Shown here one piece after another: positions 6,236 through 47,732 of a stretch of DNA of 64,000 bases. The translations under genes were made by a program, and so were the position numbers. The first letter of the stretch is position 1; every line of letters starts with the position of its first letter. Origin of the DNA: an uncultured virus (IMG/VR IMGVR_UViG_3300041583_000459) (taxonomy: Duplodnaviria > Heunggongvirae > Uroviricota > Caudoviricetes); IMG/VR virus record IMGVR_UViG_3300041583_000459, one strand, 5' to 3'. A model generated the notes under the pieces. It was not told the origin of the DNA. It searched no databases and saw only the letters and a list, made by a program, of their open reading frames with translations.

Positions 6236-6706
6236 CTAAACTGCCGTCGTATCTACTAATTTTTCTACAATTTCAATAGAGAATTTTTGATATTTACGAA
6301 CTCTTTCAATATCTTTTTCTGTGACATTTTTTAACCTATTAAGATCACTATTATGTCGAAGATCACAAAGTTTTACAAGCATTGCATCTCTATTTGAAAA
6401 TACAACACTTTTATATTCATCTGGTGTCTGCCCATCAATTTTTGTCAGGGCTACAATACCAGATACAATACGTTCTGTCATTCCAATATCTTTTAAGTCT
6501 TGAGATGTGGTGTTGGTATCTTCTATTGTATCATGCCCGAGTGCGATACATTGCAACTCTTCATCATCAATATCGATATAATCTAACACTTTCAAAACGT
6601 GAAGAATATAAGGTGAACCACCTCTATCAAACTGCCCTTGATGCACTTTTGCCACATATTGGAGCATTTGGCTTAACATTACACCTTTTTTAGTAATTTC
6701 TTTCAT
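6236..6706 (-). CDS. HD-domain (p)ppGpp hydrolase-like protein (SAH/Mesh1-like), early copy
   Basis: HQGQFDRGGSPYILH, LGHDTIEDT, VKLCDLRHN; TTGACA promoter at about 6756. Confidence 0.85.
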   Translation of the reverse strand: MKEITKKGVMLSQMLQYVAKVHQGQFDRGGSPYILHVLKVLDYIDIDDEELQCIALGHDTIEDTNTTSQDLKDIGMTERIVSGIVALTKIDGQTPDEYKSVVFSNRDAMLVKLCDLRHNSDLNRLKNVTEKDIERVRKYQKFSIEIVEKLVDTTAV

Positions 6707-8902: not shown

Positions 8903-9525
8903 TTAAGATGCTATGAGAATTTCAATCAGCGTGATGCGTTGCCTATCATGGGAGACATAGGCGGCATCGGCGGCATAGGCGGCATAGGCGGCATCTACGG
9001 CATAGGCGGCATAGGCGGCGGCATAGGCGGCATCGGCGGCATAGGCGGCATCGGCGGCATAGGCGGCATCGGCGGGGCATAGGCGGCATCGGCGGCAATC
9101 CATTTTTGCCCGCTAGTCAGCAAATTTATTCCTGCAATAACTGGATCGATAACCGCCTGAATTGCATTAGGCTGTGGCGGGATTTCGCGCAACATTGCAG
9201 ATAGCAACTGCCACTGAACGCGGCTCAAGTCTCGCCCGTCGTGCCCAACTGCGGCAGCAAACTCAAGGGCAAATTCAGTTTTGGCTTTGGTTGTATCAAT
9301 GTTTTCAAAAATACATTCGGCAATTTTAATCAACGCAACAGGAATACCATACATGTCCTCGATTTTTTGGGGGTCGTTGCTTTGAACGTGGCAACCGATA
9401 AAACAAGCTTGGCCTGTAGCTTTTTTGAAATATGTTCCGCCAATATAAAGGTCTGCTGCTGCGTGATCAGAGCTACGCTTTTGAAAAGCTTCAATGTTGT
9501 GGGTAAGCATGTCATTATTCTCCAT
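8903..9525 (-). CDS. Protein with an Ala-rich (AAD/AAY)n tract, split by a 1-nt frameshift at about 9075
   Basis: ORF 8995..9525 shifts to PPMPPM where ORF 8903..9103 continues AADAAY...RQRITLIEIL; adding one base restores a 207-aa frame. Confidence 0.7.
8955..9097. repeat. 9-bp tandem repeat GGCGGCAT(A/C)
   Basis: Directly visible tandem array. Confidence 0.95.
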
Positions 9526-11273: not shown

Positions 11274-12378
11274 TTTTAATCACTTTCATCGTTTATATAC
11301 TCATTGTTAATACTTTTTACTTCTATGTAATAACCAGTGACAGGACAAGATCTACACACACTATAAAATTTTATGCTCGATTTTCTACCATATTCAGGAT
11401 TTTCTATACGTTCATATCTACTACCAGTCCATTCATCCCAATAGTGAAATCTACTTTTAAAAATTTTTATAGCATTCAAATCTTTTGAGCTTAACATGGG
11501 AACGCATTTAGGAACAAGATTCGCGGCATACCACTTTTTGTATTTTTGTGCTTTTATGTAGCTTGATTCTATAGTTTCAGTAGGTCCATACTTTTTAAGC
11601 CTGTACGCATCTCCTTCTGCAATGAGATTAAAAAGCCTTTTAATTAATTTAAAAATCATTCATTATTGTTTTCTTTTGATTTGGCAAAAACAATATAAGA
11701 TAATATAAGGTACATTTAATGTGTTGCCGACCTGATTGTTTTGATAATCGCAATTTCAGCAGATTCCAGCGCGTCAGTATCAGTCCAGTTAAGAATTTCA
11801 CCGCCCAGAAAACCACCCCATGCAAGGGTTTCGTCGCTTGGGTGCTGAACATGGCGTTGAGCACTTGCACAGTCAACAATCGCGTTTGCGTGACCCAAGC
11901 AAAGTTCGCGGTAGTATGCAATACCCCCAGACTTGAAGTTTGCTTTGACATAATTATAAGTCATCTGAACCGATGCACTTTTAGGCCCAGCTGCCTCGCA
12001 ATGGATTGGCTCAAGCGTTGCCTGCAAACGAATCAAGATGGCCTTAGATTTAATTGCCATAAGTTCTTTGTAAATACTTGTCATGTCAGTATCTCCGGTT
12101 GGGTTTATTTTGTTACGTCTATGATATATGTATACAACGGAGCGATCTTAGTGTCAACTACTAAGATCGCTCTGAATTAGTTTGCGTTACTTGATCGCGT
12201 CATTATAGGCGGCGAGTAGCTTCACCCATTTCACTCCATGCGACTTGTTTCACATTGTGAATGTCAATCATATTAGTTTTCTCCAAATCTATCTGATACA
12301 TTTTCAGTGCAATTGTCTATTTCGACATGGCCATGCCAACAAGAACTAGACAATTGCACAGTTATTTTTTCTAGCCTG

Positions 12379-13368
12379 TTACGTTCGAATAGGCGGATGT
12401 GAATATGCACTCTCAGGTAGACGGGCCAAGAAAGCTTGAGCACCAACTGCTGATGTGATATATTTACCATTATCCCAAGGATTAGACAACGGAACACCGA
12501 GAAATACTGGACCATTACGTGGGCAAATTGCTTCTAGAAAGCGACCTTTGCGCGAAAGCCCAGGGATTGTAATTTCAATCAATGCGCCAATATCAGTTTC
12601 TGGATCTCCTTCTAATACATTATAATTTAGGCTGTGCTTCAAGCGAGCGTAACCATACAAAGCAATTCCCGCCGCCCGCTTGTCCACGTCGGTGCAGCTA
12701 AGGATTTCCGATGGGTCAATTGTATCTCGCTCGATAACCCATTTAGCAGGAATTACAACCCCATTGAAAGAATATACTTTAGTTCCATCATTGTACTCAA
12801 TTGCAGCAGTTTTCTCGTTATGCAGATCACCTGTCGCATTTAGGGTAAGACGAGTTGGCTTTTCGCAGATGATCACTAAATCACCATACAACCATACCCA
12901 GCCTGAGTGAAGGGCTAGAGCCCGAATACCAGCCGACAATTCTGAAAGGTTAAAATGTTCAGCAAAGAAGTCGTATAGCGAAAGCCAGCCAGCTTCGTGT
13001 TGTCCGTAAAATCCAGGCCAAACTTTGGTGTATGTAAAGTCTGGATTATCTTTCTCTGCTTTTTCTACTTTGGCACGGATCGCTTCGGTCAAAGCATACG
13101 GACCTAGTGCACTCAAGTTAGCAAAATCGGTTTCAGTAAAATCAATGAACTTACCAAAACCAATGAACTTCATTGCCTCTTTCGGGCCGCTCGGAAAGAT
13201 AAAGAATTTTGGGTTGGGCAGATTGGCATATTTGTATGAAAGATTAGAAGCTTTGATTGCCTCGATGTGGTCGATCTTTGAGGTATCCGTACCAATGGCA
13301 ATCCACTTACTGCGGAATTTCGGCATCGAATCTACCTGTTCTTGAGTAAGTTTTTCAATTTTATCCAT
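12379..13368 (-). CDS. DUF6745-like protein
   Basis: IEKLTQEQ...W...G, YGQHEAGWLSLYDFF, GWVW.Y..LVIICEKPT.L.....G.LH....AAIEY.DG..VYSFNGV; likely start MDKIEK after an AAGGT RBS. Confidence 0.75.
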   Translation of the reverse strand: MDKIEKLTQEQVDSMPKFRSKWIAIGTDTSKIDHIEAIKASNLSYKYANLPNPKFFIFPSGPKEAMKFIGFGKFIDFTETDFANLSALGPYALTEAIRAKVEKAEKDNPDFTYTKVWPGFYGQHEAGWLSLYDFFAEHFNLSELSAGIRALALHSGWVWLYGDLVIICEKPTRLTLNATGDLHNEKTAAIEYNDGTKVYSFNGVVIPAKWVIERDTIDPSEILSCTDVDKRAAGIALYGYARLKHSLNYNVLEGDPETDIGALIEITIPGLSRKGRFLEAICPRNGPVFLGVPLSNPWDNGKYITSAVGAQAFLARLPESAYSHPPIRT

Positions 13369-13500
13369 TTTTTTACCTTTCGGGTAAATTACATTATATA
13401 AGGTTTCGGCGGTCAATGGCATATAAAATGCCATCAACCTTAGTATATACCGATTCTAAGTAGATGTAAACAACGATTTCTACTTTCGACAGAATTTCTA

Positions 13501-13866
13501 TCAGTCCTGTACTTCACGGATTTCATCCGCGAAGGGGTCAAATTCTACATCGGCGCGGATTGCATAAATGCCTTCTGCAAGCATCAAGTCTGCATGGCCT
13601 TCGGTTGCTGTCTGGTGCAGCGCAGTCGGTGCCTTTACAATTGCGTAAAGCGTTCGCATTGCGAGGGTTTGAGAACCGATGCTCTGCATTTCGGTGTGCT
13701 CAATCACGTCGACGTTGCCGCCAAGCACGTGATGATGTCCCTTTTCGCTATGAGCAAGAATAAATGCTCCGTTATTGTCTTTCTTCGGGCGCGCAGAACC
13801 GATATTATCTGGCAATGCTGCAATTTTGTATACTCGTAGTTCGCCTTGTGCTCCAATATTTTCCAA
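13501..13866 (-). CDS. Small His-rich protein of the type usually adjacent to DUF6745 genes
   Basis: QGE..., LAHSEKGHHHVL, L.H....GH, GIY.IR...EFDP....R.V.D. Confidence 0.65.
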   Translation of the reverse strand: MENIGAQGELRVYKIAALPDNIGSARPKKDNNGAFILAHSEKGHHHVLGGNVDVIEHTEMQSIGSQTLAMRTLYAIVKAPTALHQTATEGHADLMLAEGIYAIRADVEFDPFADEIREVQD

Positions 13867-14028
13867 TTGAAATGCTCCTTTGTGTTAAGTTTGTGTAATG
13901 ATATTTCGCTGTATTTTGGTCTATTTATGAGAGTACACGAATAGAAAATGTAGATATATTACTTTACCCTCATTAGTACATTACACTTATCCTAGTAAAA
14001 TGTCAACCACTATTTTGCTATTGTGAAT

Positions 14029-14103
14029 TTAAGCTCGGACCTCTACTTGGTTCCCGACTTGGTCCCTAACTTTGTTCTTTGTTAGTTGTTCAAAATATGT
14101 CAT
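14029..14103 (-). CDS. xxQV mini-protein 7 (24 aa, truncated terminal copy)
   Basis: [24 protein letters not shown]. Confidence 0.6.
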
Positions 14104-14321
14104 TGTATTTCTCTCCAGACTTGGTTCCTGACTTGGTTCCAGACTTGGTTCCCGACTTGGTTCCCGACTTGGTTCCCGACTTGGTTCCCGACTTGGTTCC
14201 CGGCTTGGTTCCCGACTTGGTTCCCGACTTGGCTCCTGACTTGGCTCCTGACTTGGTCCCAGACTTGGTCCCCGACTTGGTACCTAACTTTGTTCTTTGT
14301 TAGTTGTTCAAAATATGTCAT
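14100..14321 (-). CDS. xxQV mini-protein 6 (73 aa)
   Basis: [20 protein letters not shown]...WREIQ. Confidence 0.8.
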
Positions 14322-14418
14322 TGTATTTCTCCCCAGACTTGGTCCTCTACTTGGCCTCTACTTGGTTCCCGACTTGGTACCTAACTTGGCCCTTTGTCAG
14401 TTGTTCAAAATATGTCAT
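14318..14418 (-). pseudogene. xxQV mini-protein 5, with a 1-nt deletion (33 aa if repaired)
   Basis: One 11-bp unit near 14353 gives an early TAG. Confidence 0.65.
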
Positions 14419-14588
14419 TGGATTTCTTTCCCGACTTCGTTCCTGACTTGGCTCCAGACTTGGTCCCAGACTTGGTCCCTGACTTGGAACCAGACTTGGT
14501 TCCCGACTTGGTTCCAGACTTGGTTCCAGACTTGGTTCCCGACTTGGTACCTAACTTGGTCCTTTGTTAGTTGTTCAAAATATGTCAT
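14415..14588 (-). CDS. xxQV mini-protein 4 (57 aa)
   Basis: [24 protein letters not shown]...RNEVGKEIQ, manual translation. Confidence 0.75.
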
Positions 14589-14674
14589 TGGATTTCTTTC
14601 CAGACTTGGTCCATAACTTGGCTCCTGACTTGGTACCTAACTTGGCCCTTTGTTAGTTGTTCAAAATATGTCAT
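14585..14674 (-). CDS. xxQV mini-protein 3 (29 aa)
   Basis: [29 protein letters not shown], manual translation. Confidence 0.7.
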   Translation of the reverse strand: MTYFEQLTKGQVRYQVRSQVMDQVWKEIQ

Positions 14675-14904
14675 TGGATTTCTTTCCCGACTTGGTCTCC
14701 GACTTCGTTCCTGACTTGGCCCCTGACTTGGTGCCAGACTTGGTCCCAGACTTGGTTCCTGACTTCGTTCCTGACTTGGTCCCCGACTTGGTACCTAACT
14801 TTGTTCCTGACTTCGTTCCTGACTTGGTCCCCGACTTGGTACCTAACTTTGTTCCAGACTTGGTACCTAGCTTGGTTCTTTGTTAGTTGTTCAAAATATG
14901 TCAT
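14671..14904 (-). CDS. xxQV mini-protein 2 (77 aa)
   Basis: [20 protein letters not shown]...GKEIQ. Confidence 0.8.
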   Translation of the reverse strand: MTYFEQLTKNQARYQVWNKVRYQVGDQVRNEVRNKVRYQVGDQVRNEVRNQVWDQVWHQVRGQVRNEVGDQVGKEIQ

Positions 14905-15125
14905 TGGATTTTCTTCCTAGCTAGATCCCAGTCTTCATTCCTGATTTTGTTCTTTGCTTTATCCCCCAAATGATGCCATACTTGCGCCAAAACTTGGTTA
15001 CTGATTTGATCCCACACTTTACTCTCGACTTCACCACATACTTCACCACGTAATTCAATTATTTGGCCACTTGGGCCGTACATTTCATAAACTTCTTTTT
15101 GTGTCAGTTGCTGAAAATATGTCAT
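14901..15125 (-). CDS. xxQV mini-protein 1 (74 aa, most diverged)
   Basis: MTYFQQLTQKEV...KVWDQISNQVLAQVW...RKKIQ; GAGG RBS. Confidence 0.8.
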   Translation of the reverse strand: MTYFQQLTQKEVYEMYGPSGQIIELRGEVCGEVESKVWDQISNQVLAQVWHHLGDKAKNKIRNEDWDLARKKIQ

Positions 15126-16673
15126 TGGATTTCCTCAATTTTTTATTGCATTAGTTTTAGCATCATCGCAGATTTTTGTCAACAGTCAACCTTGCAACCT
15201 CGTTCCAAATCAGTTTGATTGCAACATCACTGATCAAGTTAACATCCTGTGCCACTACGTATAACATCCACTGTTCTGTAATATCAGTTGTCTTCACGCT
15301 ATGAGGTCTTGCAGAAGGCGATTGATATTTCACAATCCACGAAGAGTCTCCGTCTTCGTCTTTGCGGATAAAAACCAGCGTATAGCCTAGTACCTGCATT
15401 GCTCTGAGAATCTTCTCGGGTTCGCCGCCGATAACTCGCAAATTACGTTTAATCCATTCCTGTGTGGATTGTTCGGGTGTCATTGTGTTGTGTCCTTATG
15501 TGTTGCATTAGTTACTATGCCATCTCAACTTCTTTGGATTTTAGTGTCATCACTTCAAGTTCAGAAATAAGTTCTTTCAAGGTTTCTACGACTGCCAAAT
15601 TACTAACAAAATATCCACCACCAGTATATTGCTGCTTGATAGTTTCTTCAATTTTACGAACAACAGATGAAATTTCTTTGTCAGCCGCTAATTTCGCGAT
15701 TCGTTTTTGAAGTCCAAAAACATCAGTCACGAGAACAGGACCATAGTTATCTTTGTAAGAATTGCCACGGCTGTCAAATTTCTTTTGGCCATTTTTAGTA
15801 GCTACATAGATGTGACCATGGCCATTAATTTTTTCAACGGTACCAAACCCATGATTAAAAATGTGACCATTATTGCCATAACGAACAAATCCAACAATAT
15901 TACCTACTTCTAAAACATTCATGGCATTCTATCCTTTTGATTACTTATTAGATATAGCACTTAGAAAAAGAGTTGTCAATATGCAAATCAACAACTTTTT
16001 AAAATTTACTTGTATATAGCGCAAATGTAATTTCTGGAAAGAAGGTCATCATGGCGCACCAAAAAAATAGTAATTATCGGCATGTCAATCAAAGCATTTT
16101 TAGTTGGGAGCATATCAGGATTTTCTTTGGTTAATAACTATGTTGCAGCGCAAAAACTAATGACCATTTCATACAAATCTTCAAAAATATCATGTACCCG
16201 TTGAAGTCCTTCGTCATGTCCATCAGAGTATGCTTTATCATAGATAATTTGGAATTGTTTATCGTTAATTTTATGTTGTTTTTTCAATTCATCTTCAAAC
16301 ATGGTTTTTCTCGTCAAAACCATATCTTTGTAATCCCGAACATCTTCTGAATAAGAATCAAGATATTTTTCATATTCACCAAGTGAGTCAGCAAATGCGA
16401 CAGCTTCGATATGAGTTGGGTTTTGCCCAAGCTTAGGCTTAATTGGTTTTTTTGGTTTGACGATGTTTTCACCCGAATAGAAGTCAAAATGATATTCCAT
16501 ATTATTTTCCTTTTGTTTCGTCTATAATACAACAGATACAACAAAACGATCTTAATGTCAAGCACTAAGATCGCTTTTATGATTTTATTTAACTGCGAGT
16601 AACAATCGTGACAATGTTATGTACTACATCATCTGCTATGGTAGTATCATATCTTATATCAATCCAAAAAAGA

Positions 16674-26304: not shown

Positions 26305-27063
26305 TTATTCTAAATCTTCAAAATATTCGAAAGATTCAACTCGGTTTCCTCTATTGAATATCTGCTTTGACATTTGACTAGCTTGCTTGGTCGGACCACT
26401 AGGATTTGACCGGAAAGTGTCATAAATTTTACCTGCTTTCTTTTTTTGCTTCCAAAGAGTTTTTGTCATGACTTGAACTTCAGCATAAACGCCCTGTATA
26501 TCTATCAATAGATGATATGCACCGTAGTAGCCATATTCTGGGTCGCTACCTTTTTCTTTTTCTTCAATCTCTACAATTTTATCTTTGTTCTTGCGAACTA
26601 AATCTTGCATAAATTTATCAGCATCATCCTTAGTGTCAAATACAACCGCACCTCTAATGAGATCGTTGATTTCTATGATACTTTTACCACGATTGCCAAC
26701 TTTATCTTTAAGTGAATCTAAGGACTTTAACTGAGCATATATTTCTTGATTTTTAAATTTTCTGGAATTTTTCTTTAAAAAATTAGAAAATTCTTTTTTT
26801 AGTGCATTTAGTTTGCTTTTGTTATTATCGTATATAGTCTGAATAGTAGATAGAATCTTGTCTTTGTCTATTGACCCTTTTTTGATTTTAGCATCTAAAT
26901 CTCCAAAGCTGCCAAATTCTTTTCCAGTCATGAATGCTGGATTTACCAGACCCTCAAAAACAAATTCAATCTCTTCAAGTAATTCGTCATTTTCAAACAT
27001 CATGCTGTCATCAAGTGCAAATGCTATTTCTTCTTCTATGTACTCTCTTAATAGGCTTGCCAT
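26305..27063 (-). CDS. Small alarmone synthetase (RelA/SpoT synthetase domain)
   Basis: KSLDSLKDK, INDLIRGAVV, GYYGAYHLLI, AEVQVMT; acidic leader with several I/L-x-E sites. Confidence 0.85.
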   Translation of the reverse strand: MASLLREYIEEEIAFALDDSMMFENDELLEEIEFVFEGLVNPAFMTGKEFGSFGDLDAKIKKGSIDKDKILSTIQTIYDNNKSKLNALKKEFSNFLKKNSRKFKNQEIYAQLKSLDSLKDKVGNRGKSIIEINDLIRGAVVFDTKDDADKFMQDLVRKNKDKIVEIEEKEKGSDPEYGYYGAYHLLIDIQGVYAEVQVMTKTLWKQKKKAGKIYDTFRSNPSGPTKQASQMSKQIFNRGNRVESFEYFEDLE

Positions 27064-27621
27064 TTATTCTACCTCCCCAAGTTTATTTTTTATTGCTTTT
27101 ATTATTTTTTTATGTGTATTAGAAAGTTCTCTATCTTTTTCAAGCCTATCAAGTATTTTTTCTGTTTCAGCTCTATACTTTCTGCGCCACTCTGGAGTTT
27201 TGGCAGTAGCGATATCACGCACATTATCTAATCTATCCGCCAACTTTATCACAAGCGCCCAGCTACTCATCTTAGCCATTTTTTGTGCCAAGTATTCATC
27301 TTTTCCGATATCAGCAATTTTACTATTATCGCTGGTAAGCTCTTTCACTAAAGATGCAATTAAACCACCATACATTTTTACTAAATCTTCATGCGTGGTA
27401 TCGGTATCCTCTACAGTATCATGTAAATATGCTGCGCTTATTAGAGCATCAATATTGTGTGATTTTTTAAATTTTTTGACAAATTCCGCAACTCTTTCGG
27501 GATGCTTTATATATGGTGTCCCATCTGATCTCATTTGACCTTCATGTGCTTTAACAGCATATTTTAAAGCTGCGGCGGAATCTTCACGTAAGTCATAAAT
27601 GTAAGCATTAAAAGTTTTCAT
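27064..27621 (-). CDS. Small alarmone hydrolase (HD, SpoT/Mesh1-like), late copy
   Basis: AHEGQMRSDGTPYIKHP..VA, AAYLHDTVEDT, IKLADRLDN; MKTFNAYI.DLRE leader. Confidence 0.9.
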   Translation of the reverse strand: MKTFNAYIYDLREDSAAALKYAVKAHEGQMRSDGTPYIKHPERVAEFVKKFKKSHNIDALISAAYLHDTVEDTDTTHEDLVKMYGGLIASLVKELTSDNSKIADIGKDEYLAQKMAKMSSWALVIKLADRLDNVRDIATAKTPEWRRKYRAETEKILDRLEKDRELSNTHKKIIKAIKNKLGEVE

Positions 27622-31630: not shown

Positions 31631-33751
31631 TTATGATATTTTGATTTTTATCTTGCCGTCTTTTACCATCTTACTAATCAATTTAGAGTCTTCGTAACTG
31701 GATGTTGGTGCACCCCATTTCAAAGAAGGGTCAATATCTTTCTTTGGTATCTTCTTATTGGCTTGCTCAAGAATTAACTCATTTTCCATCGCTTTCAAGA
31801 AGTCTTGATAACCAGAACCTATCATAGTACATACGAACATTCTTTTATTTTCATTATTATTAATTCCGTCATATGTTTCAGTAATGCGCAATACAGACAT
31901 AGGTGGAAAAACAATTTCATCTTCACTTGGGATTTCAGATTTACCAAAAATAGGAAACATTTTTGTCCCACTAGGAACGTATATTTTTAATCTGGTGTTG
32001 CCGCTATTCGCAAGTGAAAATACAGAACTTACTGTAGTTGATAAAAATCCAGCATCTATATAATCATCACCGACTTCGTATTTTTTTACATCTGGCGTAT
32101 CTGCATTCCTATATACCCATATACCGTTTTCAAGTCTTGGTGCTTTGTCAAAATAACGCATTAAAATCTCTGTACTAACTTCCATTTCGCCTGATCTCGG
32201 CTTGTATGAATATATGCTTTTTAAAGATAAATTTTTACTTGAAATCATACTTCTCAGGTATGGATTAATGTCATATGCGGTTGATCCAGTATACCGTTTA
32301 AGATTGTGTTGCTCTACGTTATTTGATATGTCACCAAACTCATTATACCAAGTAGAAACTTCTTTCATAGACAATACTGCTGTCTTCTTTGCTGCTACGT
32401 CTTCATTAGATTCTTCAAATCCTTGATACCCAGAATATGGACTCGATTCATTAGAACTACCAAATGCTTCTAAGACAGAAACTGGATTTTTATCAAGTTC
32501 AAGCTTTTTTTCAACAACTTCGATTCCACCACTTGAAAGTTTAGATTTTTCCTTTGGTTCCATTTTAGTCTTAATGATACCTTTAAGTGTATTAATAGCG
32601 GGTGCATCAATATACATGAATGATGCAAGTGATGCTTTTAATATAGATGTATTTTCTGGTGTCAAATTCAATTCGCCATTTACTTTAAATACGCCTTCAT
32701 CTACGAGGGACTTTCTTATGTTAGTTGGCAGATTATTATATCCCTGCTTCGCTGCATAACTCAAATCATTAAAATTTATCTTCGATTCTTGGTATCCAAA
32801 TTTAGATATTTTTTCATATGCGCTCGGAAGTATGATAGCCATGATGTGTGGTAATGATAGGGTGAATAGTGAATCAGAAGCATTATCAAAATATCCAGCA
32901 CCAGATATATAAGACTTACTACCACCATCAAGAGCTTTTAACAATAAGTCCTTTGCGGAATTTACGTTGATAGACACAACGTAATCTTTTTCTGGAATTA
33001 GATTTGCGTTCTTTGGTTTGGGGTTTTCTTTTTCTGCTTTATATTTTAATGAGGCATTGTCAAGCATGTACACTGTCTCATCTTCGGCAGATAATTCAAC
33101 TTTTATTTTACCAAAAGCAAATTTATCACTTGCTTTCATAGACACATTAGGTTTTATGAACTTGTAATATTCTTTGGCATCGTCCATCATATCGCTTGTG
33201 AACTCTGGCATCTTTTTGCCGTCAAATTGAAAATTTTTGTGAAATGCAGCAGACTTAAACAATGAAGTTGGCTCTACGCTTTTCTTGACAAGGAATAAGT
33301 AATTTTTTGCTTTGTCGGAAGTTTTTATAATTGGGACTTCCCGAAATTGTTTAATATAGCTTCTTTTCAAAATTCTTCCCAATAACGGGACATATTTTTC
33401 AGAACCAGTTTTACCTGGGATGTCGATAAGTATCCCTTTCATTTTGACCATGACAAACGGGTAACAAGCCTCCATAAATTTTATGACAGTAGACAGCATA
33501 GGTCTAATATGATTTGGCTTAAAGAAAGACCAAAATCTTTTTTTGACGTTTACAATCCGATAAAAATCAAGTATGTAAACACCATCATAATCTGATAAAA
33601 TTAAAGACATCCCATAAGATGTCCCATCATGATCTATAGCCGCGAATATTTCTTTCGGCATTTTAGTATCGTCAGTCATATAAAATTCTATGGGGCTGTC
33701 CAAGGACTCTTTTATAAACCCATTTTCGCTAAACTTATCAAAGCCAATCAT
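31631..33751 (-). CDS. alt: Alt-like ADP-ribosyltransferase
   Basis: 706 aa; YTGS....IN.YLR, VYRN, FLSTT, EDEIVFP (R-S-E class); IKE near the N-terminus and ILE before the C-terminal tail. Confidence 0.8.
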   Translation of the reverse strand: MIGFDKFSENGFIKESLDSPIEFYMTDDTKMPKEIFAAIDHDGTSYGMSLILSDYDGVYILDFYRIVNVKKRFWSFFKPNHIRPMLSTVIKFMEACYPFVMVKMKGILIDIPGKTGSEKYVPLLGRILKRSYIKQFREVPIIKTSDKAKNYLFLVKKSVEPTSLFKSAAFHKNFQFDGKKMPEFTSDMMDDAKEYYKFIKPNVSMKASDKFAFGKIKVELSAEDETVYMLDNASLKYKAEKENPKPKNANLIPEKDYVVSINVNSAKDLLLKALDGGSKSYISGAGYFDNASDSLFTLSLPHIMAIILPSAYEKISKFGYQESKINFNDLSYAAKQGYNNLPTNIRKSLVDEGVFKVNGELNLTPENTSILKASLASFMYIDAPAINTLKGIIKTKMEPKEKSKLSSGGIEVVEKKLELDKNPVSVLEAFGSSNESSPYSGYQGFEESNEDVAAKKTAVLSMKEVSTWYNEFGDISNNVEQHNLKRYTGSTAYDINPYLRSMISSKNLSLKSIYSYKPRSGEMEVSTEILMRYFDKAPRLENGIWVYRNADTPDVKKYEVGDDYIDAGFLSTTVSSVFSLANSGNTRLKIYVPSGTKMFPIFGKSEIPSEDEIVFPPMSVLRITETYDGINNNENKRMFVCTMIGSGYQDFLKAMENELILEQANKKIPKKDIDPSLKWGAPTSSYEDSKLISKMVKDGKIKIKIS

Positions 33752-34965: not shown

Positions 34966-36384
34966 TTATTTTTTTTTCATGTCTTTTAATCTTTTTTCTT
35001 CAGCATCATTGGCAATGTCTCTTTGTACCAAACCGATACCACCCTTTGCTTTGTCTATCTTTTTTTGACTTAACTTGGGGTCATTTATGTCTTTAGTTAG
35101 GTCTTCGATAGCATTTTGTCTAAGTGTGTTTATTGTGTCTGCCCCGCCTGGGATATTGTCTACTATTTGGCGATGAAGTTCTTCTTTCCAAGTCTTTTCG
35201 GGATAAAATGGCTTTCCGGCTTCCTTAACAGTAATATAGTAGAATCCTTTCACCCCAGCACCACCAGCAGTTTTTTGATTTTTCAAATCTACTGTGCGAC
35301 CTTTAAATTTTTGTCCAGTCTCAAAGAAAATAGTATTATCCCTATTATTCATAATGACAACAAATCTCCCATTTGCACCTGGGAGCATTTTCTTTTTATC
35401 AAGAAGATTTTGCATCGTCTTTGCGGCACCTTGATGTGTGTCTAAGAAAACGTCGGCTGGAACTACACGGTCTCTGGTAAGGTTCGCAGAATAAGCTACC
35501 TTAAAATCCGTAAGAACCCAAGCAAGGTGAATATTCTTGGGATTGTAACCAGCATCTTCAAGACTGAATATAGCAGATTGGAAATCGCTAATATCTTTTC
35601 CTGTAACATCAAAAATAATATTTGGCAAACGGTCAGCTCTTGCATCATTTAACAAAAGATCAAGTGTCCTATCACGTATCCCCTTATCCTTTACAAATAA
35701 ATGTAAGGCAAACACATCTTTTGGATTTTTCAAATCAAGATTGGCAATTTCTGGATTCATGCCCTTTAGTTTAGCAAGTTTGAGATAAGCTTTTTTCCAT
35801 TCATCTACATCTCTAATTTTAAATTTGTCTGAATCCATAAAAGAGGAAGAAGCAAAACCCTTTCCAGAGTTGTGCACAACAATATCACTTTTTGTTATCA
35901 TGTAGTTGTGGTTGTCTTCTACAGATAAGTCATACACCACTCTGTCCACTGTACCCAAGGGTTTCTTTGATATGGCTTCGAGGTCTCTCGCCTTAACCCA
36001 TTTACCATCAACATAAAATAGATGATTTTCGGTGCAAATAACAGTTTCACCATTTTCAAATGTTATCTCTAATAGATTATCTGTTTGTTGTGATGGATTG
36101 TATGAGATTTTTTTCAAAACTGGTTTTATTTCTATTTCGCCAGTATCTTCATTTATGGTGTATACTTGGTCATCTTCCGTAACTTCACTTATTTTTTTAT
36201 GTCCTTCTGTGGTTTTGACGAGTGTATCACCATCAAAACATCCTGCTCCACCAGACATGAAAACAATTTGGCCATACTTTGCACCACCACCAAAAACGAC
36301 TAATTTTTCATGTAGTATTTCCATCTCTTGCAGCATATAAGATTCTTCTAATTTTTCTTTGATATAATTTTTGAATGTGAACAT
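34966..36384 (-). CDS. Zeta-toxin-like P-loop kinase containing a mini-intein
   Basis: Spliced Walker A GGAG|SGKG, DVDE, IIFDVTG, A...N..R.RVVP; MFTFKNYIKE leader. Confidence 0.75.
   Translation of the reverse strand: MFTFKNYIKEKLEESYMLQEMEILHEKLVVFGGGAKYGQIVFMSGGAGCFDGDTLVKTTEGHKKISEVTEDDQVYTINEDTGEIEIKPVLKKISYNPSQQTDNLLEITFENGETVICTENHLFYVDGKWVKARDLEAISKKPLGTVDRVVYDLSVEDNHNYMITKSDIVVHNSGKGFASSSFMDSDKFKIRDVDEWKKAYLKLAKLKGMNPEIANLDLKNPKDVFALHLFVKDKGIRDRTLDLLLNDARADRLPNIIFDVTGKDISDFQSAIFSLEDAGYNPKNIHLAWVLTDFKVAYSANLTRDRVVPADVFLDTHQGAAKTMQNLLDKKKMLPGANGRFVVIMNNRDNTIFFETGQKFKGRTVDLKNQKTAGGAGVKGFYYITVKEAGKPFYPEKTWKEELHRQIVDNIPGGADTINTLRQNAIEDLTKDINDPKLSQKKIDKAKGGIGLVQRDIANDAEEKRLKDMKKK
35869..36240 (-). 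mobile_element. Mini-intein (124 aa, no homing endonuclease)
   Basis: CFDGDTLV (block A), CTENHLF (block B), VYDLSVEDNHNY (block F), VVHN|S (block G). Confidence 0.92.
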
Positions 36385-45057: not shown

Positions 45058-46569
45058 ATGTCAGATTCGTTTTATACGAATGTCACTCGCTATGGCAATA
45101 ATATATTATGGCGTGGTTACGAAAATGGTGTTGCATTTTCAAGAAAAGTAAAATACCAACCCACACTTTTCACCAGAACAAAAGATGAGACTCCTTGGAG
45201 TTCTTTCGTCGAAAACATGCCAATTCAACCCAAGAAATTTGAAACGATGGGTGACACAAAAGATTTCATAGAAAAATACAAAGGCGTTGATGGTTTTGGT
45301 GTTTATGGCAATTCTAACTATGTCACACAATTCATACAGGAAAAATACCCAAACAATATCACATTTGATATGAACATTGTCAACATTTTTTCTTTTGATA
45401 TTGAAGTTGATATTCGGGATGGTAAACCAAATATGGAAATAGCAGACAAGCCCATTACATCTATTGCCACAAAATCTTCAAAACAAGACCATTACTATCT
45501 TCTTGGCCTTAAAGACTATGATAGGTACGCGACCGTAACAGGCATAGATCCAAAAAACATTCGCTTTATCAAATGCGATTCGGAAAAGGATTTGCTCGAA
45601 AAATTCATGAGGATTTGGTGTGAAAATTATCCTGATATCGTAACTGGGTGGAATTGTGACTTCTTCGATGTGCAGTATGTAGTGACTAGAATTATCAGCC
45701 TGTTCAGTGAAGCAAGAGCAAAAGAGCTTTCACCTTGGGGATATATTAAAAAGAAGTCGATTGAAAAATTTGGTAAGAGACAATACAGCTATGAAATTTA
45801 TGGCATTTCAATAATAGACTATATGGACGTGTTCAAGAAATTTGGATACAAATATGGCACACAAGAAAGTTATAGACTTGATCATATTGCACATGTTGTG
45901 TTGGGTGAAAAAAAGCTGGACTATTCACAATACGGAACACTTACCGCACTATATGATAACAATCCCCAACTTTACTTAGACTATAACCTAAAAGACACTT
46001 TACTAATTCAAAGATTTGAAGATGAAACAGCAATGCTTTCTTTGACTCTTACTGTTGCCTATGGTGGGGGCGTTAACTTCAACGATGCATTTGGCACAGT
46101 AGGCATTTGGGAAGCTACACTATACAGAAAACTAATGGACAAAAAGTTAGTTCCAGCCGTAAAATCTAGTTCGGGTGGTACACCATCAGATTTAGTTGGG
46201 GGGTATGTGAAAGAACCAATTCCAAATATTTACCCTTGGGTAGTTTCATTCGATTTGAACAGCCTATATCCTATGTTAATGGTTCAATACAATATGTCGC
46301 CCGAAACTTATATTTCAGATGTGCGTTCTAAAGTGACACCAGATATGGTCTTGGAAGGTAAGTATCAAAACAACAATAAAAATAATTCTGTTTGCGCTAA
46401 TGGGGCTCATTTCAGTAACGAAAAAATCGGTGTCATCCCCGAAATCATTAATGAATATTATGCCAAAAGAAGCAAAACTAAAGTAGAGATGTTAGAGATG
46501 GAATCTCTGTTAGAGATTATAAACGAAGAGAAAGCTAAAAGAAAGTCAAATTTGGCAATATCTACATAA
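45058..46569 (+). CDS. Family B DNA polymerase gp43, N-terminal subunit (exonuclease and motif A)
   Basis: FDIEV, GWN..FFD, YN.KD, SFDLNSLYP. Confidence 0.95.
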   Translation: MSDSFYTNVTRYGNNILWRGYENGVAFSRKVKYQPTLFTRTKDETPWSSFVENMPIQPKKFETMGDTKDFIEKYKGVDGFGVYGNSNYVTQFIQEKYPNNITFDMNIVNIFSFDIEVDIRDGKPNMEIADKPITSIATKSSKQDHYYLLGLKDYDRYATVTGIDPKNIRFIKCDSEKDLLEKFMRIWCENYPDIVTGWNCDFFDVQYVVTRIISLFSEARAKELSPWGYIKKKSIEKFGKRQYSYEIYGISIIDYMDVFKKFGYKYGTQESYRLDHIAHVVLGEKKLDYSQYGTLTALYDNNPQLYLDYNLKDTLLIQRFEDETAMLSLTLTVAYGGGVNFNDAFGTVGIWEATLYRKLMDKKLVPAVKSSSGGTPSDLVGGYVKEPIPNIYPWVVSFDLNSLYPMLMVQYNMSPETYISDVRSKVTPDMVLEGKYQNNNKNNSVCANGAHFSNEKIGVIPEIINEYYAKRSKTKVEMLEMESLLEIINEEKAKRKSNLAIST

Positions 46570-46628: not shown

Positions 46629-47732
46629 ATGATAAATTTATGCGATATGACAAACGAAGATTTGCTGATTTTGGAGTTACAGACTAAGAAAAAAATTGTA
46701 CAGTTGCACAATGCCCAAATGGCAATTAAGATTGCTATGAACTCACTATATGGCGCAACCGCAAATATATATTTCCTGTATTATATTGGCGAAATGGCGG
46801 AAGCTATTACTATGTCAGGCCAACTTTCGGTTAGGTATGCAGAAAAAGCAGTGAACGCTTACATGAATAAAATAATGAAAACACAAGATGTAGACTATAT
46901 TCATTACATCGACACCGACAGTATCTATCTGGGCATGGGTCCATTAGTTAAAAAAGTTTTTGGGCCAGATGATATTTCTGTGTCACAAGGCGAAGAATTT
47001 CTAGACGGTGTTTGTAAGACTAAAATTGAAGTTGTGTTGTCTGACGCATATAAAGAGCTTTCAAATTATATGGGTTCATACGAAAATGCGATGAGGATGA
47101 AACGAGAAAAGATAACAAACAGATCACTGTTTGTTGCGAAAAAGCGATATATTATGAATGTCCTTAACAGCGAAGGCGTCCATTATGATATTCCTAAAAT
47201 TTCTATAACGGGAATTGAAGCAGTAAGATCCTCTACCCCAGAGGTATGTCGTAAAAAAATGAAAGAGACCTTTAAGGTTATTATGAACAGCACTGAAAAA
47301 GAAGTTCAGAGTTTTGTTGATGATTTTAAAGACACATTTAAGAGCTTGCCTGTAGAAGAAATATCAAAGATATCAGGTACTAATTCTATCGAAGAATATA
47401 TGGATGGTAACACATACCGCAAAGCTTGCCCTATTCATGTTAGGGGCTGTATCATATACAATCGGATGCTCAAGAAACAAGAATTAGATAAGAAATATGA
47501 CATCATAATGTCTGGCGATAAGATCAAATACGTCTATCTTAAAATGCCAAATCCCTCCGGCGAAAACGTAATTTCATACGCTAACGTATTACCACCAGAA
47601 TTTGGGCTTCACAACTATATTGACCACGACTTACAATTTGAAAAACTTTTCGTTGCACCAGTCAATAAAATTCTTACTGCTATTGGTTGGAGTGCCAAGA
47701 AAATTGATACCATCGAAAGTTTTTTTTCATGA
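46629..47732 (+). CDS. Family B DNA polymerase gp43, C-terminal subunit (motifs B and C, thumb)
   Basis: KIAMNSLYG, YIDTDS, KKRY, C-terminal clamp-binding-type IESFF. Confidence 0.95.
   Translation: MINLCDMTNEDLLILELQTKKKIVQLHNAQMAIKIAMNSLYGATANIYFLYYIGEMAEAITMSGQLSVRYAEKAVNAYMNKIMKTQDVDYIHYIDTDSIYLGMGPLVKKVFGPDDISVSQGEEFLDGVCKTKIEVVLSDAYKELSNYMGSYENAMRMKREKITNRSLFVAKKRYIMNVLNSEGVHYDIPKISITGIEAVRSSTPEVCRKKMKETFKVIMNSTEKEVQSFVDDFKDTFKSLPVEEISKISGTNSIEEYMDGNTYRKACPIHVRGCIIYNRMLKKQELDKKYDIIMSGDKIKYVYLKMPNPSGENVISYANVLPPEFGLHNYIDHDLQFEKLFVAPVNKILTAIGWSAKKIDTIESFFS

Follow-up and report, generated by a model that had tools for sequence, protein, structure and literature searches.

A tandem array of tetrapeptide-repeat mini-genes beside a tract-less DUF6745 gene in an uncultured T4-like phage

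We analysed a stretch of 64,000 nucleotides (nt) of the uncultured virus IMGVR_UViG_3300041583_000459 (Caudoviricetes), henceforth referred to as the window, in which seven head-to-tail mini-open reading frames (ORFs) occupy positions 14029-15125 of the minus strand, upstream of a small His-rich gene and of a gene encoding a protein of the DUF6745 family. The explanation that best fits our results, to which we assign a probability of roughly 0.6, is that the array is a fast-evolving tandem family of small early genes and that these genes are free-standing copies of a tetrapeptide-repeat tract which, in most DUF6745 proteins, lies between the N-terminal and C-terminal domains. That the mini-ORFs are real genes, are homologous to the DUF6745 tract and are functionally tied to the pair formed by DUF6745 and its His-rich partner is a part of this explanation in which we have considerable confidence.

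Seven coupled mini-genes lie upstream of the DUF6745-partner pair

The features of the locus are listed here with their lengths in amino acids (aa) or base pairs (bp).

12379-13368, minus strand: DUF6745 gene without tract, 329 aa from Met24; the mechanically called ORF extends to 13437 (352 aa)
13501-13866, minus strand: His-rich partner gene, 121 aa, TTG start behind AAGGAG, 132 nt upstream of DUF6745
14029-14103, minus strand: mini-gene G, 24 aa, truncated terminal copy at the array boundary
14100-14321, minus strand: mini-gene F, 73 aa, in which identical GNQV units follow one another
14347-14418, minus strand: mini-gene E, 23 aa, in which a 1-nt frame change leads to a premature TAG
14415-14588, minus strand: mini-gene D, 57 aa
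14585-14674, minus strand: mini-gene C, 29 aa
14671-14904, minus strand: mini-gene B, 77 aa, 15 core tetrads, an internal 4-tetrad duplication and an ATGA overlap at both ends
14901-15125, minus strand: mini-gene A, 74 aa, old diverged copy with degenerate tetrads, a KKIQ end and its own GAGGA ribosome-binding site
14114-14878, no strand assigned: 12-bp tandem-repeat tract (TRF, 63.2 copies; higher-order periods 86 and 97 bp)

Five of the seven copies are intact, one is frameshifted (E) and one is truncated (G). The original prediction, which had been made from the sequence alone, of seven coupled variable-repeat mini-ORFs is thus real, and its coordinates, leader count and 12-bp period were confirmed. 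The copies follow a common plan in which a leader, MTYF(E/Q)QLT, is followed by x-x-Q-V tetrads and mostly by a KEIQ end. Six copies share the leader MTYFEQLTK, as had been predicted for all of them, and the remaining copy, ORF A, is diverged and barely repetitive and begins with MTYFQQLTQ. A 20-nt leader pattern occurred seven times in the 64-kb window, each time within the array, against an expectation of 0.01 from shuffles. In the 46 core units, position 1 of the tetrad is W, R or G (M once), position 2 is N, D, Y, S, H, F or G, and positions 3-4 are Q(E/K)-V(A).

Copies A, B, C, D and F share the ending (K/R)(E/K)IQ, and their TGA stop lies inside the ATGA of the next gene. The ATGA stop/start coupling described in the original prediction was found at five of the six junctions (A/B, B/C, C/D, D/E and F/G), but not at E/F, where there is a 25-nt gap; readthrough would give E an EIQ end and an overlap with F, and the remnant of E (14322-14346) retains the tail and the ribosome-binding cassette for F. 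The tail codons of each mini-gene double as the ribosome-binding site of the next (GGAAAG, GGGGAG or GGAGAG), at the same spacing as the GAGGA of ORF A, and are followed by ATCCA or ATACA and then by ATGA. Since each tail is the ribosome-binding cassette of the following gene, the chain appears to be built for translational coupling, and the unit that was duplicated ran from one ribosome-binding site to the next. Translational coupling, and not use as a peptide cap, may be the reason why the constant EIQ end has been retained.

An internal tract and separate mini-genes are mutually exclusive in DUF6745 loci

The ORF at 12379-13437 matched Pfam DUF6745 (PF20530) over residues 143-268 with an E-value of 1.4e-19 and 70.6 bits against a cut-off of 27, and the family assignment of the original prediction was thereby confirmed. 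We found 52 homologues and aligned 20 of them with the window protein (21 sequences). The homologues begin at Met24 of the window protein (window position 13368), and about 46 of the 52 are phage-like proteins of ~325 aa which start at the Met24 equivalent and have no repeat. The motifs YGQHEAGW, LHxE, CPRNG and a C-terminal RT are common to the window protein and its homologues; H183, E185, C282, R328 and T329 are invariant in the 21 sequences, in which YGQHEAGW is also aligned. The statement in the original prediction that DUF6745 proteins often carry an internal tract before YGQH proved correct: In the more distant homologues P0047, P0049, P0050 and P0052, two of which are from named Rhizobium/Agrobacterium records, runs of [WRG][DA]QV or [WRG][DA]SV lie exactly between the N-terminal part and YGQHEAGW. 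The window DUF6745 protein and its clade contain no period-4 segment, and so do not have this fused architecture, and in the AF2 model of the window protein a pair of short helices (residues 79-107) takes the place of the tract.

To survey DUF6745 loci an alignment-based search was needed, since a single-protein query gave no viral-contig loci; this search yielded 130 loci (80 viral, 24 metagenome and 26 bacterial genome). The 51 unique tract-bearing ORFs contain 6-118 tetrads (median 29), starting near residue 83, and the fixed pair of the tetrad is lineage-specific (QV 13, AT 12, SV 7, QL 5, AA 4, others). The complete DUF6745 genes were first counted as follows.

With internal tract: mini-genes nearby 0, none nearby 55
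Without tract: mini-genes nearby 22, none nearby 15

In this count of 92 loci the association gave a Fisher p of 1e-11, not corrected for relatedness. Three loci with tracts that are broken or masked by N (L031, L112 and L129) were reclassed as tract-bearing, and in the corrected count of 92 complete DUF6745 genes mini-genes were present at 0 of 58 tract-bearing and 22 of 34 tract-less genes. The tract and the mini-genes therefore never occurred together, which agrees with the proposal in the original prediction that the tract has been externalised, and the co-occurrence of arrays with DUF6745 extends well beyond the window. The public records of two of the reclassed bacterial loci are masked or gapped, with N runs, exactly at the tetrapeptide repeat (L112:5540-5920 and L129:5560-5880).

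Elsewhere, 21 viral loci contain mini-genes, 72 of them unique, which are 53-114 aa long, lie on the DUF6745 strand in 80 of 91 cases and are often chained by 4-nt overlaps. The split arrays at L014, L026, L041, L043 and L075 are like that of the window in having a tract-less DUF6745 gene, the partner and chained x-x-Q-V genes of 53-114 aa, and differ from it in belonging to the other tract-less clade and in having the leaders MKSVK or MNSVR and other tails. In a tree of the C-terminal domain the tract-less genes fell into two clades, one of 28 rows and one of 7 rows that includes the window, and the same result was obtained with FastTree (93 rows) and with an IQ-TREE quick search (58 rows, LG+G4). 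Forcing the tract-less genes into one clade cost 66 log-likelihood units (approximately unbiased test, p 0.012, from a quick search with trait groups defined after the first tree had been seen). The nearest tract-bearing relatives of both tract-less clades have QV-type tracts, and the leaders differ by clade (MTYF versus MKSV/MNSV). The existence of two tract-less clades indicates that the switch between an internal tract and separate mini-genes took place at least twice, in a direction that this unrooted tree does not reveal. The MTYF family, found in five contigs besides the window, has an origin separate from that of the other tract-less clade.

The original prediction had further noted a match between the leader of the mini-proteins and the N-terminus of the DUF6745 protein. 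This match was weak: FEQLTKDQV against IEKLTQEQV scored 24, tied third of the 160 window ORFs and outscored by two unrelated ones, and in 18 other split loci the median rank of the leader against the N-terminus of its own core was mostly mid-table. We therefore rejected the derivation of the leader from the DUF6745 N-terminus as a general feature. Overall, the externalised tract and the diversification by slippage or unequal recombination (see below) survive from the interpretation first proposed for this locus and the leader match does not.

The DUF6745-partner pair is a widespread two-gene module

Homologues of the partner were found beside DUF6745 at 123 of the 130 loci (78/80 viral, 26/26 bacterial and 19/24 metagenome), and the five metagenome loci without it are fragments that break off at the 5' end of DUF6745, the side on which the window's clade carries the partner. 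Where the locus is viral or bacterial, the partner is usually separated from DUF6745 by no more than 60 nt and shares its strand. The window has the two-gene module as we define it, that is, a partner of ~115-120 aa directly adjoining DUF6745 on the same strand. The module is widespread: virulent T4-like phages carry it, as do temperate phages and alphaproteobacterial prophages. Culturable carriers of the fused form include prophage loci in non-pathogenic laboratory strains of Ruegeria sp. (L106), Brevundimonas (L111 and L115) and Novosphingobium (L121). The genes that adjoin the pair in temperate relatives are those for Erf, exonuclease, SSB, methyltransferase, repressor and integrase. Searched with a partner profile, 1.84 billion representatives yielded 4077 clusters (50% identity) at E ≤0.001, and among the best 150 matches P0120 (485 aa) and P0143 (481 aa) consist of a DUF6745 domain followed by the partner in a single polypeptide, these being either true fusions or read-through calls.

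The partner belongs to an orphan family: It had no match in Pfam, NCBIfam or PADLOC, a Pfam scan of 44 partner members found no family in more than four of them, and a search of the Atlas with the partner returned only unnamed phage clusters. Its invariant residues are Q7, G8, P19, H39, S40, E41, G43, H46, H91, G99, E108, R117 and D121, and its AF2 model (pLDDT 89.1) is all-beta with a C-terminal helix. The best VIA-align match to this model among 48,161 chains had a Z of 3.4, and the partner profile matched PDB sequences at E 0.14 or worse. The H-x-E...H pattern led us to consider a cupin/2OG-type metal enzyme, which we rejected as the best Foldseek match had an E-value of 0.56 and cupin chains appeared only at E >1. 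The DUF6745 model (pLDDT 89.5) has a helical N-terminal half and an alpha/beta C-terminal half. Compared with solved structures, it gave a best Foldseek E-value of 0.12 and a best VIA-align Z of 4.4, the latter covering residues 247-294 only, and the protein had no sequence match in the PDB.

Relation to known systems

The system nearest to that of the window is the fused DUF6745 protein (P0049, annotated in its source as a DUF6745 domain-containing protein of Rhizobium sp., P0050, P0052, P0047 and loci L002-L013). The two have in common a homologous C-terminal domain (27-39% identity for P0047, P0049, P0050 and P0052) with conserved YGQHEAGW and CPRNG, an N-terminal LT..Q start, the partner gene and a tetrad of the [WRG]-x-Q-V type; they differ in that the window protein lacks the tract and the same tract type is found instead in seven small upstream genes. 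In the literature that we searched no paper mentions DUF6745, and searches for phage tetrapeptide repeats returned only the work on mycobacteriophage Tweety and unrelated papers, so that the description of the system as undescribed in the original prediction holds for that literature.

The only studied analogue of the tract, which behaves like a fast-evolving specificity element, is Tweety gp54. Passages of PMC2884959 describe Tweety gp54, Che8 gp57 and PMC gp51 as non-essential proteins in which unique N-terminal and C-terminal parts flank 15-48 tetrapeptide repeats; two residues of the repeat are fixed and two vary, third codon positions are invariant, and the repeat number differs between related phages. 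According to part of a review (PMC9262239), mutants that escape the Phrann gp29/gp30 defence differ in gp54 repeat number. The build is similar to that of tract-bearing DUF6745 (flanking parts, two fixed and two variable residues), but we regard Tweety gp54 as an analogue and not a homologue, since it has no Pfam match and its hhalign probability against the DUF6745 alignment was 0.13%. Its neighbours gp53 and gp55 did not match the partner, its tetrad is A-A-[GWQ]-[SY], and no detached mini-genes are described for it. The Tweety authors draw a parallel, in the same passages of PMC2884959, with VR2 of bbp36 from the Bordetella phage BMP-1, a non-essential gene with 9-20 in-frame short repeats; compared by its description, VR2 differs from the window tract in having a 24-bp unit with spacer variants. 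Two other candidates were rejected. A diversity-generating retroelement was rejected because there is no template/variable pair and the CAA adenines vary in 0 of 46 units while positions 1 and 4 vary (no reverse transcriptase was found in PHROGs or Pfam scans of the window ORFs of at least 250 aa), and a pentapeptide-repeat protein because the 12-bp period corresponds to four residues and no such Pfam match was obtained.

Proposed role of the mini-proteins and points against it

We propose that the mini-proteins would supply exchangeable variants of the tract to the DUF6745-partner core, and that they may also act alone on the same target. A working relationship with the core in trans is a tentative proposal, which we rate at somewhat below even odds. 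The length of the tract and its two variable residues would set specificity, by analogy with the repeat number of Tweety gp54, and the module would be an accessory early function in phage-host or phage-phage conflict; a role specifically in defence or counter-defence seems to us possible and, on balance, doubtful. More speculative still, and in our judgement improbable, is the idea that the tract is a programmable recognition rod, the detached arrays being interchangeable specificity modules for a DUF6745-partner effector pair. If that were true, the phage would hold a library of variable ligands, renewed by unequal recombination, with which diverse host or prophage defences could be evaded or disarmed.

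Several observations weigh against our explanation as a whole. A detached tract cannot serve a tract-less core as a covalent spacer, and the trans model therefore requires a mode of action other than that of the fused form. In Foldseek and VIA-align comparisons neither core protein has a recognisable fold or belongs to a family of known function. At 12 of the 34 tract-less loci there is no mini-gene within the flanks, including L084 and L085 (69-70% identical in DUF6745), which means that the array is dispensable there or lies elsewhere. Two of the seven window copies (E and G) are broken, the variation among young copies falls at positions that are silent in the antisense frame, and the copies of the array have their order and number from the original assembly, with no independent contig spanning them.

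The alternative that survives best, which we nevertheless consider unlikely, is that the mini-proteins work alone, for instance as decoys or inhibitors of host factors, do not bind the core, and lie beside DUF6745 merely as a result of gene fission. It would account for the 12 tract-less cores with a partner and no mini-genes nearby, and for the fact that the array, ~160 nt away from the partner gene, is served by a chain of ribosome-binding sites of its own. Against it, mini-genes occur beside tract-less cores only, in two independent clades, a distribution that is more easily explained if mini-genes replace the missing tract.

Turnover of the array and support for its assembly

It is considerably less probable that the array is mostly neutral debris, in which a recombination-prone repeat spawns and loses short ORFs of little or no function. 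The broken copies would be expected under such a process, as would a copy number which ranges from 0 to ~16 among close relatives, and frozen silent sites (described below) indicate that the copies are very young. The relative with a 94% identical DUF6745 (L083) is collinear with the window (94.8% identical upstream and 89.5% downstream of the array) and carries four different MTYF genes at the array site; a 98% identical relative (L082) carries ~16 MTYF mini-genes there; and L084 and L085 have none upstream and one degenerate, repeat-less MTYF ORF downstream. The split form is thus a natural experiment with one conserved core and many exchangeable small proteins, and the range of ~16, 7, 4 and 0 copies among close relatives makes the role of the tract directly testable. 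The diverged copies (ORF A, six in L082 and two in L083) speak against debris, as they retain a start codon and an open sense frame while their antisense D-L-V-P frame has gained stops, and most of them retain a KEIQ-like tail; so do the ribosome-binding cassettes, preserved at every junction, and the mini-ORFs kept in 21 viral loci, with the strand bias given above.

Mini-gene C of the window corresponds to a 73-aa copy of the 98% identical relative (L082:3197-3415) minus 11 tetrads, the first 16 aa and the last 15 aa being identical, and the first 16 aa of mini-gene B are identical to those of L082:4047-4271. The first copy of L083 is a chimera of the first 25 aa of one L082 copy and the last 32 aa of another, and the single MTYFENL gene of two further loci (L001 and L086) differs between them by 5 tetrads; the record behind L001 (G002) had 0 matches to the window-specific leader pattern. 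The 11-tetrad deletion and the chimera indicate that unequal recombination drives turnover, and, judged from these sequence comparisons, the changes are what in-register unequal recombination, acting on 12-bp units as well as on whole copies, would be expected to produce. The slippage or unequal recombination invoked in the original prediction is supported by these three cases. In L082 an extra 189-aa ORF (L082:6175-6744), absent from the window, lies between DUF6745 and the next shared gene.

Comparably improbable is that the repeat is in truth shorter or ordered differently and owes its seven copies to the assembly. The run that best matched the window, labelled as a salt lake metagenome (X1), contained 0.90 of the sampled words. 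Independent contigs from this run break off at 14094 and start again at 14882, and the six listed pieces between them (76-139 nt) leave four gaps, at 14160-14203, 14292-14301, 14547-14571 and 14785-14881. The first gap lies in the GNQV run of mini-gene F and is uncovered among the listed pieces, leaving the number of units there unverified, and the unit counts in F and B are not independently bridged. All six pieces, however, are 100% identical to the window, confirming the local array structure, and span several junctions; a 105-nt piece covers the whole of mini-gene C and a 127-nt piece the whole of the frameshifted mini-gene E. Since an independent piece spans E, its frameshift is real in the reads. 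In addition, the assemblies L082, L083 and L001/L086 also carry MTYF arrays, which in L082 and L083 stand at the same site. Three other runs (X2, X3 and X5) contain relatives with other array contents, and those in X2 and X3 have a 13-nt insertion at 14039.

Precursor peptides and the coding strand

A highly improbable reading is that the mini-genes encode precursor peptides modified by DUF6745 and its partner, in the manner of ribosomally synthesised and post-translationally modified peptides (RiPPs). It is true that two conserved proteins are here accompanied by many small genes in which the leader is constant and the core variable, and the invariant polar residues of DUF6745 (H183, E185, D194, R231 and C282) and of the partner (H39, E41, H46, H91, E108, R117 and D121) hint at an active or ligand site. 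Yet in 58 of 92 homologues the would-be core peptide lies within the putative enzyme itself, and the leader is not conserved between the two clades. Nor was a known RiPP enzyme family found when five proteins were scanned against Pfam, NCBIfam and PADLOC; matches to models of RiPP enzymes or anti-phage defence systems were no better than E 0.004, all of them far below the cut-offs.

The strand on which the array is read also had to be established. Unit positions 1 (A21/G15/T10) and 4 (A26/G11/T8/C1) account for nearly all of the variation in the 46 core units; at the four third codon positions of the minus frame only 1, 0, 0 and 5 of the 46 units vary. On the minus strand the variable positions are read as NGG (W/R/G) and NAC (N/D/Y/H); read from the plus strand, these bases become the silent third positions of GAC TTG GTN CCN, which gives D-L-V-P in 29 of the 46 units, and ORFs of 30-176 aa exist on that strand. 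Because the variation is silent on the plus strand, the plus-strand reading had to be tested, for which we compared 25 MTYF-family copies taken from the window and from four related contigs. The sense frame was open in all 25, whereas the antisense D-L-V-P frame was interrupted by stops in 13, every diverged copy among them. In ORF A only the sense frame is open, with 2-4 stops in each of the three antisense frames, and the changes in diverged copies are of the kind V to I/L/M/A and Q to E/K/N. Every minus-strand start has a purine-rich site upstream at a fixed distance, and the neighbouring genes are all on the minus strand, as are the ribosome-binding sites; the plus-strand ORFs change frame at each unit, use TTG starts and have no ribosome-binding site. 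Within long DUF6745 ORFs the tetrapeptide tract stays in frame over hundreds of residues. The frozen silent sites fit very recent copying of units, with variation retained only at the two x codons, and passages of PMC2884959 describe the same pattern, frozen silent sites beside varying first and second positions, for the tract inside the long ORF of Tweety gene 54. In view of these results, we find it scarcely credible that the plus strand is the coding one, giving (P-D-L-V)n mini-ORFs, or that the repeats are non-coding DNA sites such as iterons.

Genome setting and other features of the window

By its gene content in PHROGs and Pfam scans the window is a piece of a T4-like myophage, with a split gp43-type DNA polymerase, sliding clamp, clamp loader, gp46/47-type nuclease subunits, RNA ligases, thymidine kinase, and baseplate and tail-tube proteins. 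Its GC content is ~35%, minus-strand genes, many of them small, run across ~1 to 38000, and the array and the core pair are surrounded by small early-type genes. The nearest virus record (G001, 20.7 kb) contains neither DUF6745 nor the array region. Among GenBank phages there were zero DNA matches to window positions 12000-16000, no match to the partner, and a single tblastn match to the window DUF6745, an uncultured record at 25.7% identity; these searches thus found no cultured phage model in that collection. A hairpin lies ~200 nt downstream of the DUF6745 stop.

12138-12174, no strand assigned: hairpin with a 16-bp stem, a possible terminator of the unit, from a consensus scan only

In that promoter and terminator consensus scan, terminator-like sites and promoters were no more frequent than in shuffles.

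The window contains two further tandem repeats. The first is an in-frame repeat of 9-bp units (15 copies, 8956-9097), which supplies the (P-P-M)n C-terminal tail of an early ORF of 176 aa without a family match (8995-9525, minus strand). The second is a 15-bp repeat of 10 copies (2-153; periods of 30 and 45 bp fit it as well), truncated where the window begins, which on the minus strand would give a pentapeptide repeat. The T4-type DNA polymerase is split into adjacent plus-strand ORFs (45058-46569 and 46629-47732) that are the N and C parts of one PHROG polymerase family. A TnpB-like gene with OrfB_IS605 and a Cas12f1-like TNB domain lies within the phage genome (30286-31506, minus strand). 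A RelA/SpoT-domain protein of 252 aa (29.4 bits against a cut-off of 27) adjoins an HD-type phosphohydrolase (26305-27063 and 27064-27621, minus strand), and a second phosphohydrolase is located at 6236-6706. An ORF of 706 aa (31631-33751, minus strand) has a C-terminal ADP-ribosyltransferase domain (Pfam, 45 bits), which we presume to be akin to the Alt-type enzymes of T4-like phages. Lastly, an ORF of 472 aa (34966-36384, minus strand) combines a Hint/intein domain at residues 47-178 with helicase-family matches, which suggests an intein-bearing gene.

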